DNA of 64,000 nt from Eledone cirrhosa (Eukaryota), in the NCBI GenBank assembly GCA_964016885.1, contig OZ024742.1:81654001-81718000 (forward strand), given 5' to 3'. The notes beneath the pieces are model-generated. The model was not told where the DNA came from, ran no database searches, and saw only the letters and a program-made list of their open reading frames with translations. Each line of letters opens with the position of its first letter. Within the stretch, counting starts at the first letter, position 1. Position numbers and translations under genes: made by a program. Below are positions 14,563 to 60,962 of this stretch, piece by piece.

Positions 14563-14811
14563 TTTCGTTTCTGAATTTGTTTAGCAAGATTCTTTATCTG
14601 AAATCGTGTGTTGAAACCGATATTGTTATACTTTGGGAGGGTCATGTTGCTAATAAGAAACACACGCACCAGTTGCTTTCACTTCAATTTATTATAATCA
14701 ATTTATAATAAATTTATAAATTTATTATAAATTTATTATAATAAATTGAAGTGAAAGCAACTGGTGCGTGTGTTTCTTATTGGCAACATGACCCTCCCAA
14801 AGTATAACAAT
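14563..14811. mobile_element. Asymmetric fold-back mini-element, PLE family A
   Basis: Left arm ends at the long terminus (rc GAAACGAAAT), right arm at the short terminus (AAGTATAACAAT); same two termini as 52157-60696; (TA)n on both sides. Confidence 0.9.
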
Positions 14812-14861
14812 ATATATATATATATATATATATATATATATATATATATATATATATATAT

Positions 14862-14964
14862 ATTAAAATAACAAATTAAAGTTTAAGCCAAGAATCGCTG
14901 TTTCACCCTTAACGGGATCTTCTGATACTTTGGATTTTTAGTCTTCAAATATATTATTATTACT
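14862..14964. mobile_element. Family I mini-element: HHR-containing short arm (minus) fused to tail end (plus)
   Basis: 14862-14927 matches 60965-61027; 14929-14964 is the reverse complement of about 63817-63853. Confidence 0.75.
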
Positions 14965-14974
14965 ATATATATAT

Positions 14975-15166
14975 AAACCTCAAACCCTCCATCACAATTC
15001 TACTTTTGAAAAGCACAAGAACTGCGAAACCGGTAAAGGGTCCAAATAAATATATCTAAAAAAAAAAGACTCCAGTTGCATTTTCGATTTGATCATTTTT
15101 CCTTTTACTTTCACTCGTGTAGGACACCTCGTTCTTTTTCATTTTGTAACGAAACCTCACTTTCTA
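14975..15166 (+). mobile_element. Probable PLE 3' terminus, family G, with decayed hammerhead
   Basis: ACTT-TTGAAAA-GCA..TGC-GAAA-CCGG-TA-AAGG at about 15002-15040; bracketed by (TA)n. Confidence 0.45.
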
Positions 15167-17328
15167 ATATATATATATATATATATATATATATATATAT
15201 ATATATATATATATATATATATATATATATATATATATATATATATATATATATATGTATATATATATATATATATATTATTGAACGCTAAATCATTAAT
15301 AACATTTTAACGTATTTACCTGAATGCCGGACGCCCCTTCACATACGACGCACCCTAATTCATAATTATATTTTAAGTTATATGTTGTCGTTGATAGGCA
15401 TTTTTACCGACACCGTCCAATATTTGCGGTTTCTCACACTACCCCGGTGTTCTATGAACGTAACCGCCACAAACTCCGGGGCACAATCCCGTCTATCTCT
15501 ATATATATAACACTGTTAATGAAAACTGTATTTATTTGCTGCCCAAAAACGTTTCAGTCCATTAATTTGCTACGCTGGTAATCTAGCACTGCCATCTTAT
15601 TTACTGAACAAGTATTTTGGGTCCTTTGATAATCAGTTTGTATCATCTCACTTGCAAGATTATGAGCTCTGTGACTGATTACTGGCCGGAGCTCACTTAA
15701 ATAATTTCGCTTTTATTTTATCCTAGTTCTGTTGACTTGATCCTGTGTAAGGTGTATATATGTTGTTTTTTTTTATATTGGTTGTTCGATTTTATATTTT
15801 GGCTCGGTGCATGTGTATACAGATTTGAAGCTGATCAAGAGATTTTTTTTCATTTTTTGTGGGAATTCAATTTTTTTTTTATTCCATCCACAGTAACGTA
15901 TTATCCCAATAGCAGCCTACCTCTATTTTAGGGGTCATATATCATGACACTACTGAAATCTAATAATGTGCGATGGCAGAATGTGTGAGAATGTGTTCAC
16001 TTTGAAGACCACTAATCCGATCTCTTGATTCTGTGTTTGATATTAGTGTTAAGAGAGAGGTTTTAGAGAAAGTAAAGGCGACCAGATTTAAGACATTGGA
16101 TCGCATTTTGCTTAAGCGGGAATCTGATGTCAGGTTATCAAATCAAATGTGGCAAACCATCCTCCTACTTCGTAATCAGAAGTCCTTCTCGAGACCTGAT
16201 AGAAGAAACACATCTGTGGTTTTCCTAATTTTACACATGTGCATCCACGTGAAGTGGGGAGAATACTTTGCTCACCTCCTGAACCTGACCACAGCAGTAT
16301 ATTCTGATGTAAAGGAGGGGCATTTGGAAGTGGTGACTAATCTTTCGTAGGCTATTATCACAAGCAGTTAAAGAGCTGAAACGTAGCAAACCTTTGTGGA
16401 AGATGAAGTTCGATCCGAGATATAAAAAGAAACCTTCAATAGAGAAGGTATTCTCTGGTGGATTCGTGTGATCTGGGTGGCCTGGATCCCTAGAAAGGCA
16501 CTTAAGAAATGGCACTCGGGAATGATAATCCTAATTTTGAAAAGGGTAATAGGAAATATTGTTCCAATTAAAATCCCCGGTAAAATATTTGTTGAGTGAC
16601 TGGCAAAGTGAAGAAGGAGGATAGTCGAGCATGAGCTAACTGATACAGTATGGTCTTTGCTGGTGCTGGTTGGGGATCCAGCCGGATAAGTTGGAGACAG
16701 TTGTTTCTGACATGCCCCGCTGGAGGAAATGTTCTAGGACTTCTCCAGACTTCCCCACACCACCATCTCAGGATTAAGTAGCCGAAGAAGAAAAGACACA
16801 GACGCACACCCAAATCTCTCTCTCTCTCTCTCTCTCTCTCTCTCTCTCTCTCTCTCTCTCTCTCTCTCTCTCTCTCTTACTCACTCTCTCTCTCATTATC
16901 TCTCTCTCTATTTATATATATATATATATAACCGCTACTTACTACTGTTTTCGTTATATCAAGCCTATTAATACATGCAGTAAATGTAAATAATACAACT
17001 TTAGAATCGTTGAGCGATTGAAAGTGAATTTGAAATACCCATTTTTTGCCTGTAATATACGGCTTAATATAACGGAAACATTAGGCATAGCACTTTAGTG
17101 TAAATTGTAAGCACCACGAATCGGTATATTCTAGCAATCTGTCTCACGGTCCGTGGAGTACTATATTTTTCCGTTTCAGCGTTTGTATGCCCAACGTAGT
17201 CTATGTTTCATTGATGCGAGTAACCACGTGCACATAGAGAGCGCTACACACAAACTTATATTTTGTGAATGAACATTCATGTCAATTAAAATCTGGTGTT
17301 TTTACTGATCCAAGATCATTGGAGAGAC

Positions 17329-59200: not shown

Positions 59201-60124
59201 AAACAAATCCTCCATTCCCATTATGCCAAACCCATGACTTCCAAACATCTGATCCACCGAAACTCAGCCATTTCGGACCATACCAAAATCAACATACTGA
59301 TTGCGGATTTGGTACGGGTGATGAGAAATTTGTCCCGCATGTGTAACCCCGAAGAACTAGAGAGACACATACAACACTTCATCCACCGTATGCAGTTCTC
59401 TGGCTACAATCAGAGAGATAGAATCAGAGTGTATAAAGGAGCCAGAACCAAATGGGAAAAAATGGTAAATAATGACATAAATGGGACCTGCCCCTTGTAT
59501 AGGAGCAAATTTTGGAATAGAATAGAAAGAACTAAGAACAAGGCCAATAGAATAAACTCATGGTATGATAGCAATAAATACCAGAGTGTAATGTTCATCA
59601 ATACAACCCCTAGAGGCGAACTAGCCTACAAATTTAGAAGGGCCCTAAAGAAACATAATCTCAATATTAAGATAGTAGAAAGACCTGGTACCTCCGTAAA
59701 AGCACTTGTTAGCAAGACATACCCGTTCCAAAGACCCTCATGTATAGATAAGAAATGTATAACCTGTAAAATAAGCCCCCATATTAACTGTAAAACTAGA
59801 AATGTAGTATATAGCATAAGATGTACTGAAGGACAATGTAGAAACAAAAATATAGTGTACATAGTTGAGACAGCTCGTAGTATAGGGGAACGAATAAATG
59901 AACACTGGCGAGACCTCCAAGATAATAAAGAATCATCTGTGCTCTACCAACATGCTAAGATAGAACACAGGGGTAAATTAGAGAGCATAGAAATAAAAAT
60001 AGAATCCACACACAAGAAAGACGCAATGTTTAGGCAAATTACAGAGGCAGTAAGCATAAAAGAATTAAAACCAAAATTAAATAGAAAATATGAGTGGAAC
60101 AGCAACATCACAACTTACAATTAA
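56273..60124 (+). CDS. PLE polyprotein: reverse transcriptase + CxxxxCxxC linker + GIY-YIG endonuclease (true start probably at 56297)
   Basis: TDKSG, LYGLRKDHK, TRPV, SMDVVSLYPSI, YSRYVDD, LPVLD, CIDKKCITC, VVYSIRC..YI(G/V)ET.R, R..EH; open for 1283 codons. Confidence 0.95.
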   Translation: MRVFLIGNVTLPKYNNIGFNTRFQIKNLAKQIQKRNIVSLSQANKILKTTMFCCLRKTITSRQLRFIKLCTTSRIYTNTINTDVRRLQLTKKQADRLKRTLILNIKKKIYRELSHQEKLKRNLIQEISKITTPAEKLTFISLIRPEEQYITQECNKHLNRKLKWLKQAKLNRDTIEYTNRYPDKIDGINMADTSLSEEFNNENTNIYGNTEIDNNEMSVLRLPPKFATFKKVNMISCLSEIEKSFTKLRWSIKNKNKSNNIRTHIYNTHPNNNRHTDTNNNNNNNSNILRYNNNNSNIPRYNRHADTNNNNNTHGDNNNNNTHINNNNNSNIPRYNNNRHANTNNNNNTHNNDNTHTHRDNNNTHQQQHTSTTTTHTHSMPLTTTTILTNTQTQKTSNDSSTEIREIRESNSNRIKRKRRWETKDKENNQDEHTDTQNRVDNNIEPVERDRSNYERHINNHEAEAAVVGGNRNNTTNNNNSTSTHKAAAWNSPFYNPSDKSFDLRRVHATTLPFNKRTQLPSQVDEQTEAQFSIAKSELRNIIEQYSKKHNRIEAQQLGEESANGLRKLMQRSRNGEIACFPTDKSGRMSVDSLPNYIQAMQPHITNTKEVTPQEHEDREKTLNAHMVMWTNIMQPNKRTANNFQAWNNDVPALYGLRKDHKTGWDPVAGPPTRPVCGANIASNYRLSYFLSLIIRPIIEMSPDVCDSTEDLVSRIGAGNRSGDLTNCIIGSMDVVSLYPSIDVDFAVEKCVEMISESKVEFRGIDTSELGLLLKLTHSNSYLDTYDLSNLCPTRPARGRPPTITSMAKKTHTDRWNGWTRAIRTPENHDELKKMIAHAVGASIKLTLKEHMFKFNGKTYAQEEGAAISVSIAGDIANLFMVWWDSRLKQKLNEQLEDSLTLIMYSRYVDDINIVVKTPPLKNSQELEKNTMESIQQIANSIHQSIRVTIDYPSRHPNHRLPVLDTELWLDTINNQKQILHSHYAKPMTSKHLIHRNSAISDHTKINILIADLVRVMRNLSRMCNPEELERHIQHFIHRMQFSGYNQRDRIRVYKGARTKWEKMVNNDINGTCPLYRSKFWNRIERTKNKANRINSWYDSNKYQSVMFINTTPRGELAYKFRRALKKHNLNIKIVERPGTSVKALVSKTYPFQRPSCIDKKCITCKISPHINCKTRNVVYSIRCTEGQCRNKNIVYIVETARSIGERINEHWRDLQDNKESSVLYQHAKIEHRGKLESIEIKIESTHKKDAMFRQITEAVSIKELKPKLNRKYEWNSNITTYN

Positions 60125-60434
60125 GGACAAAACGAAAACACACACACACATAGAACAAACAACTTACAATTGAAAACACACACAAAATGAAAACACACAC
60201 AAGACAAAATGAAAACACACACACACATAGAACAAACAACCAACCAACAATAAATAAATAAATAAACAAACAAATAGAAAAATATAAATAGAAAATTAGA
60301 AAAATGAACACAAACACACACAGATACCCGGATGTGGCGCATGAGCAAACTGAGCACGCAACCCACACACAAACAAAATGGCGTAGGATAGAAGAAAAGA
60401 AAAGAAAGGCACAGAAACGAAGAAAGAAATCCCC

Positions 60435-60479
60435 AGTCACTGAAGAGGTCACAGAGTGTGTGACGAAAGAACTATGACT
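60435..60479 (+). ncRNA. Minimal type-I hammerhead, family A, 3' pLTR
   Basis: Identical to 56119-56163. Confidence 0.75.
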
Positions 60480-60695
60480 ATATATATATAAACAACTATC
60501 TGGTTGTGGAACCAACCAACCAACCAGAAATTTATAAATTTGTAAATTTATAAATATATAATAAATTAAATTGAAGTGAAAGCATGTGGTGCGTGTGTTT
60601 CTTATTGGCAACGTGACCCTCCCAAAGTATAACAATATCGGTTTCAACACACGATTTCAGATAAAGAATCTTGCTAAACAAATTCAGAAACGAAA

Positions 60696-60962
60696 TATAT
60701 ATATATATATATATATATATATATATATATATATATATATATATATATATATATATATATATATATATATATATATATATATATATGTATATATATATAT
60801 ATATATATATATATGTATATATATGTGTATATATATATATATATATATATATATATATATATATATATACATATATATACATATATATACATATATACAT
60901 ATATATATATATATCTATATATATATCTATATATATATATATATGTATATATATATATATAT
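60696..60962. repeat. Long (TA)n tract between two PLE 3' ends
   Basis: Direct reading. Confidence 0.95.

Follow-up and report, generated by a model that had tools for sequence, protein, structure and literature searches.

Paired long and short ends of Penelope-like elements in Eledone cirrhosa suggest two preset priming sites near the start of the open reading frame

Introduction

A stretch of 64,000 nucleotides (nt) from contig OZ024742.1 of Eledone cirrhosa (positions 81654001-81718000 of a 3.0-Gb genome; termed the window) contains abundant (TA)n runs and repeats. The families A, B, C and E among these repeats are Penelope-like elements (PLEs), and their copies raise the question why they stop at the same few positions and what selects them. 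The original prediction assigned two fixed termini to each family, placed them inside the start of the open reading frame (ORF) and proposed that AT-rich sites mimicking the (TA)n target define them, either as endonuclease nicks in an element intermediate or by microhomology priming. According to the analysis reported here, the two fixed ends are the borders of the PLE tail, and the two nicked (TA)n strands of a target probably each prime at a different preset site in one RNA.

Family A ends at two fixed sites

The ends named in the original prediction for families A, B, C and E are all present in the sequence within 1-2 nt. For family A these are the short ends at 14811, 52157 and about 5746 and the long ends at 14563, 60696, 9498 and 11408 (the last one with the variant GAAAGGAAAT). 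The features of family A in the window are:

56297..60124, + strand: ORF with reverse transcriptase (RT) and C-terminal GIY-YIG endonuclease; the start codon is GTG (56297), and there are missense changes, with YIVET at the YIG motif
56319..56322, + strand: short start site S, read through (ATAT, ORF nt +23 to +26)
56379..56382, + strand: long start site L, read through (ATAT, ORF nt +83 to +86)
52154..55088, - strand: inverted arm of 2.9 kb belonging to the insertion; its short end runs into (TA)n
55095..60698, + strand: partial tandem unit and full unit, long end into (TA)n at 60695-60698
60440..60490, + strand: hammerhead core with an internal (TA)6 run behind it; copies at 56124 (+) and 52352 (-)
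14560..14813, both strands: mini inverted insertion with its long arm on - and its short arm on +
7759..9500, + strand: older 5'-truncated A-type copy, long end
11405..11560, - strand: arm with long end
5710..5749, + strand: A-type stub with short end, sharing a TA run with a long end of family B

Both sites read AATATCG within the ORF, which agrees with the ATCG predicted to follow them, and the tail is the 60 nt between S and L. The exact anchor upstream of the short site has 28,244 matches in the genome, so family A has at least this number of copies. The regions around 98 of the first 100 listed anchor matches yielded 112 arms, which end at the short site (51), at the long site (55) or elsewhere (4) or read through (2). 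Accordingly, 106 of the 110 terminal arms lie on one of the two sites, and one of the four exceptions is a diverged relative that failed to align. With all loci pooled the count is 204 of 210. Although 20 AT/TA steps are available in the end stretch, the ends concentrate on two of them and are not products of random truncation, as had been predicted. The 5' junctions of the arms show no visible clustering at the predicted hammerhead cut.

Each inverted insertion combines one long and one short end

Head-to-head pairs of family A were counted at a cover of at least 80% of the element, and unbiased loci were kept separate from other loci. Among the unbiased loci 32 of 33 pairs consist of one long and one short arm and a single pair has two long arms (p = 4e-9); furthermore, there is one pair of a short and an odd end and one with a read-through arm. 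The other loci contain 11 long-short pairs, one short-short pair and five pairs with read-through arms. Ends scattered over all AT dinucleotides without long/short pairing would have spoken against the original prediction; they are not what is seen. At 20 young full-length loci an inverted partner is present in 14, and all 14 are long-short pairs, the full-length arm being short-ended in eight and long-ended in six.

The other families show the same pattern. For family E 31 of 35 pairs combine a long and a short end, in a set that includes loci chosen for long ends. The pairs of families B and C, called by adjacency only, are of this type in 24 of 31 and in 11 of 13 cases, respectively. The remaining B pairs comprise five with a subfamily whose long arm failed to align, one long-long and one short-short pair. 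In the pattern listing the short-short call of family C corresponds to a long arm with a deletion.

The two arms of an insertion are closely related. Over 816 polymorphic columns partner arms have 49 mismatches compared with 309 expected. In 15 full-length insertions the arms diverge by 0.22% within and by 0.66% between insertions, and in eight of these 15 both arms carry the same locus-private variants. A three-way test of the inverted arm against the terminal and the internal unit (13/11/7 odd sites) did not tell the two units apart. Most simply, both arms would have been templated by RNA from one source element. Their 5' extents differ: among 43 pairs the short arm reaches more than 40 nt further 5' in 15 and the long arm in 16, whereas 12 pairs stop within 40 nt of each other (5.2 expected, p = 0.002).

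Family E retains the short site and shifts the long one

Family E is diverged from family A. Over 39 codons of the end region, 19 differences are at third, 12 at first and four at second codon positions, and this preference for third positions indicates that the region is coding. Two copies are found in the window:

30827..31467: inverted insertion with the long arm (minority register) on -, the short arm on + and a hammerhead at 31237
19578..19613, - strand: E-type stub with short end, sharing a TA run with a long end of family B

The claim that E ends at the homologous positions holds for the short site, which is exactly that of A with the ATAT retained, but not for the usual long end. Of 115 arms 69 end within the short-site zone, 54 of them exactly at the site, and 44 at long ends; unlike in A, the long arms are thus fewer than the short ones. 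At the position of the A long-site ATAT, E has CGTCACGGC. The 44 long ends are spread over positions 45-70 (~25 nt) with the mode at 60 (21 of 44), i.e. 15 nt upstream of the A long site. The window copy, 4-5 nt off the A long site, represents a minority register (4 of 44).

Where the long ends are followed cleanly by TA, 24 of 33 fall on the only two AT steps of the 33-nt zone (p = 1e-11, with three positions allowed per step and 11 ends that are not clean left out). The step at position 60 is also present in A and was used once there. The registers of E show no association with subfamily (p = 0.62), which leaves inheritance of registers unsupported.

Affiliation of the families

Hammerhead cores were located in families A, B, C and E by a script search of the window. 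The single ORF of family A, judged by motifs read from the translation, encodes an RT plus, at the C-terminus, a GIY-YIG endonuclease (EN) with a CCHH motif. A Pfam search of this ORF gave zero matches; in a protein search 105 homologs align to the RT-EN region, and the closest named protein is from Octopus vulgaris (70% identity). The pseudo-long terminal repeats (pLTRs) result from partial tandems and are accompanied by an inverted 5'-truncated copy and a one-sided tail. The pLTR contains a predicted hammerhead, with core and stems located by script; Rfam returned no hammerhead and only sub-threshold, miRNA-like chance matches. With the ORF, the pLTR and the hammerhead in place, family A is an EN+ PLE.

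The linker CIDKKCITC in front of the endonuclease fits CX2-5CxxC as found in the clades Neptune and Nematis, but the RT has DKS and not the DKG of these clades, in which RT3 and RT4 are not separated by a long insertion. The spacing between RT3 and RT4 is 128 residues in A and 128-131 in six homologs, while it is about half of this, by eye, in the Nematis rows. Family A is unlike the Neptune and Nematis rows seen, is assigned to no clade here and may belong to an unnamed PLE lineage. An Asn/Thr-rich low-complexity insert precedes the RT. An annotated protein isoform of O. vulgaris holds a 79%-identical piece of the family A protein, probably as a mis-annotated or exonised insertion.

The ORF of family B (locus L336) has DKT, an RW-basic (RWK-like) motif, a CxCX5C linker and CxxC + CxH, without CCHH. 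DKT, RW-basic, CxCX5C, CxxC + CxH, hammerhead and (TA)n are shared with the Hydra clade PLEs of PMC8557442, and by these motifs family B is assigned to the Hydra type. The protein of family C has visible DKT and RW motifs and is ~55% identical to B over 475 residues; on these features C is probably of the Hydra type. Both families have a hammerhead and insert into (TA)n as in the Hydra clade.

Hydra-type ends lie next to a repeated hairpin

The predicted location inside the ORF start applies to families A and E; the ends of B and C lie upstream of the ATG, in the 5' untranslated region (UTR). Copies of these two families in the window are:

5768..6321: inverted B insertion with the long arm on - and the short arm on +
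5831..5851, - strand: hairpin 1 (ACTC-stem-loop-NN-GAGT) just past the short site, within the B long arm
19098..19551: inverted B insertion with the short arm on - and the long arm on +
19470..19489, + strand: hairpin 1 within the B long arm
31835..32040, - strand: C arm with long end; hairpin 1 at 31917-31892
28363..28595, - strand: C arm reaching the long site, end in a CA run; hairpin 1 at 28445-28420
29718..29874, + strand: C arm with short end; hammerhead at 29775

The reuse of the same ends by family C was correctly predicted, but the end at 28362 adjoins a CA run and not TA. Inspected by eye, the long site of B is sharp (97 of 100 listed matches). Read-through copies of the same listing have a 6-nt match there; other B read-through copies have weaker ones. 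Copies of C were gathered across the genome by pattern search. Its long site offers only 2-nt matches, and the ends among 100 listed copies fall, by eye, into registers of 58, 21 and 9, with five more in CA runs, two others and five read-through copies. The inverted mini insertions of C (L312-L334) have a near-constant ~283-293 nt between anchors and share their turning point, a short palindrome in the 3' UTR.

In B and C a motif of the form RCTC-inner stem-loop-2 nt-GAGY follows the short end and is repeated after the long end. This double motif has 1,100 matches in the genome compared with 98 for a reversed control. Among 30 matches retrieved, 26 are located 15-57 nt before a Hydra-type ORF (31-100% identity to B) and four are unrelated. 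The distance between the hairpins is 90-99 nt in nine representatives. The long ends lie mostly 0-9 nt ahead of hairpin 2 and the short ends within ~11 nt of hairpin 1. This was observed at both ends for B, C and two other families and at the short end for another two; two representatives yielded no ends.

At the first three positions of the inner stem, 58 of 84 cells pair in 28 hairpins (37.6 +/- 3.8 after permutation). The pairing score for a bulge of 0, 1, 2 and 3 nt is 31, 29, 59 and 34, respectively. G-U pairs outnumber A-C combinations in the inner stem by 14 to 2, and this excess points to the sense RNA.

By eye, the same architecture occurs twice at the 5' end of the published consensus Hydra-1_Ajap and near the 3' ends of Hydra-2_Ajap, Hydra-2_Amil and Hydra-1_Crog, the last with one mismatch (PMC8557442); no clear case was seen by eye in Hydra-1_Amil or Hydra-1_Obim. 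The consensi with hairpins represent coral, sea-cucumber and Caligus elements. The words "hairpin" and "stem-loop" are absent from the main text of PMC8557442, and a literature search on hairpins in Hydra-clade PLEs, with subscription-only literature outside its scope, found no paper. A candidate hairpin of 5-6 base pairs after the long site in A and E, with one compensatory change, is broken in two other E copies and was dropped.

Target mimicry tunes the ends

The registers follow AT/TA matches of 2-6 nt, in line with the original proposals of microhomology priming and of (TA)n mimicry. The claim that mimicry defines the ends fails at better mimics. The (TA)3-6 run behind the hammerhead of family A is the best target mimic in the element, and none of 100 listed copies out of 5,926 matches ends there (by eye). 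A TATA located 7 nt ahead of the A short site carries the end in none of the 112 sample arms and in one of 243 over all loci, and the ATAT in the middle of the E tail in none of 115 arms. Because better mimics outside the windows of use are almost unused, and from the registers of A, E, B and C, position sets the window and microhomology picks the base. AT mimicry thus acts as fine-tuning and is not what defines the ends.

Proposed mechanism and alternatives

In the mechanism considered, the element protein would nick both strands of the (TA)n target, and each target 3' end would be placed in a window whose position is set by an RT-loading site on the RNA. In Hydra types the loading signal would be the twin hairpins, in A and E another, putative signal within the first thirty or so codons. 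The 3' end would then pair with the best AT step in reach, comparable to the alignment of a telomerase primer. If one RNA carried an RT at each of the two sites, one start would be long and the other short, so that pairing would be forced, and the RT from the long site would displace the cDNA of the short site. PLE RTs are not known to have an RNase H. The two cDNAs would be extended independently and joined at their 3' ends, giving the head-to-head inverted repeat. The partial tandems would need a tandem or circular template, as has been proposed (PMC4209133).

More tentatively, and plausible rather than probable, PLE integration in general may be an obligatory twin priming on one RNA. The twin RCTC-stem-NN-GAGY hairpins of the Hydra clade (molluscs, corals, echinoderms, arthropods) would then be RT-loading sites that place telomerase-like windows, and extension of both strands on one template by strand displacement would alone give the tail and the inverted pLTR.

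Several observations weigh against twin priming on one RNA. Long-long and short-short pairs occur, if rarely, many arms have no inverted partner, and six of the 20 full-length loci are unresolved. In the window, position 60613 is A in the short arm but G in both direct repeats, and this arm shows 18 differences in 2,744 nt. Folding of the ORF starts of A and E revealed no repeated hairpin after both sites. The 2-nt bulge was picked after inspection, and some of the families that supply the 28 hairpins are related to one another. In the one in vitro study, on the Poseidon element PAc, the start sites were reported to lack homology to the target and to be the same for both strands (PMC11167929). 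Finally, sequence alone does not separate one RNA from two RNAs of one locus.

The last point leads to an alternative in which RNA-primed starts occur on two RNAs from one locus within an asymmetric protein dimer, one protomer per site. It would explain the overlap of the arms without strand displacement and the difference at 60613, and a dimer has been predicted for Poseidon (PMC11167929). Extra asymmetry is required, however, to avoid long-long and short-short pairs (32 of 33 are long-short), and the excess of pairs stopping within 40 nt (12 of 43) suits a shared template, so that this alternative is unlikely. Staggered endonuclease nicks resolving an element DNA intermediate, with AT-rich sites cut as target-like (also proposed in PMC8557442), would directly yield long-short pairing and registers on AT/TA steps; moreover, the Drosophila virilis endonuclease required the tail for plasmid cutting, as cited in PMC11167929. 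Yet the best mimic, (TA)3-6, is never an end, the G-U bias of the hairpins concerns the sense strand, and tail borders coincide with RT starts in vitro (PMC11167929). Nicking, one of the two causes put forward originally, is therefore disfavoured and appears improbable.

A single cDNA copied back on itself would also produce an inverted arm (self-priming is discussed in PMC3846280), and the 12 near-symmetric pairs as well as many palindromic junctions suit such a fold-back. In 15 of 43 pairs, however, the short arm, which has no tail, reaches further 5'; neither arm then contains the other, and simple fold-back of one cDNA is excluded for these pairs. Short-ended full-length arms pose the same conflict. 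Fold-back, very improbable as the general explanation, is contradicted for a third of the pairs and could be a minor route for symmetric ones. Pure mimicry or inheritance, with ends arising at any (TA)n-like stretch of the RNA or passed on from parent copies whose transcribed TA flanks served for priming, is scarcely credible. Both A sites and both B sites are indeed matches of 4-6 nt. Against this, better mimics are unused and the model failed on the internal TA run, the long ends of E and C have only 1-2 nt matches, and the E registers are independent of subfamily; in addition, one arm must start at a site with no TA following in the parent. Priming of both strands at preset sites in one RNA is the most probable reading.

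Comparison with known systems

Short primer-template pairing sets the register in telomerase, as suggested here for the PLE ends. In the twin priming of L1 a second nicked strand primes on the RNA and generates an inversion; L1 arms do not overlap and their second site is variable, whereas both sites described here are constant and the two arms are copies of one sequence.

For PAc of Anolis carolinensis, Frangieh et al. (2024) showed in vitro that RT initiates at two internal positions bounding the tail and that both target strands are cut and extended (PMC11167929). The elements of E. cirrhosa resemble PAc in having two sites that bound the tail (within the ORF start in A and E), an AT-rich target and a hammerhead in the pLTR. 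They differ in that registers follow AT microhomology, the sites are strictly paired per insertion and the tails measure 45-90 nt. By analogy, the tail borders described here would be sites of RT initiation, as shown in vitro only for PAc. A search of the PAc supplementary text gave no relevant matches; its figures, outside that search, may show pairing.

Earlier work has described the PLE tail, its location within the first codons and its occurrence on one side (PMC3846280, Arkhipova et al. 2013; PMC8557442, Craig et al. 2021). The anatomy described there is alike, with a partial tandem and an inverted 5'-truncated copy, a tail at one end and a pLTR reaching into the first codons; the published tail is optional, 30-40 bp long and ascribed to endonuclease resolution or self-priming. 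Since the tail and internal RT starts are published, the two ends as such are known PLE anatomy. The available parts of PMC3846280 and PMC8557442 contain no pairing counts, arm-source test or RNA signal, and the available part of bioRxiv 10.64898/2026.07.22.740005 contains none of the words "tail", "hairpin" or "priming". The pairing rule, the arm-source result, the contrast between A and E and the Hydra hairpins go beyond the literature found.

PLE RTs are the sister group of telomerase. An anchored start by short alignment, if true, would tie the mechanisms of PLEs and telomerase together. Fewer models fit once the pairing rule, the test of arm source and the difference between A and E are taken into account, and the Hydra hairpins are a defined candidate cis-signal. 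PMC8557442 names the origin of the tandem and inverted PLE ends and the targeting of microsatellites as open.

Neighbouring repeats in the window

A decayed Neptune-like PLE (ADKG, YLDD, YIGQT) occupies 44930-52049 and is possibly family I of the original prediction. Its 3-kb inverted arms are 87% identical; the motif at which they stop is shared, and a long/short difference was not seen. A single short TA run lies between the facing ends of different PLE families at 5746-5768 and again at 19552-19578; new PLE copies insert into TA runs that older copies left behind. Members of a short, abundant fold-back family flanked by TA, which contains an internal palindrome and an ACTC...GAGTG motif, are present at 11631-11655, 11794-11818 and 31699-31723 as well as at loci L064, L096 and L297. 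A further repeat family has copies of 84-89% identity at 34784-37364 and 61570-63818, one of which ends in TA at 37362 after GAGTGC. Additionally, a short family with (ATT)n-like ends, often beside PLE ends, is found at 14856-14966, 17944-18026, 34144-34281, 60955-61048 and 63816-63999.

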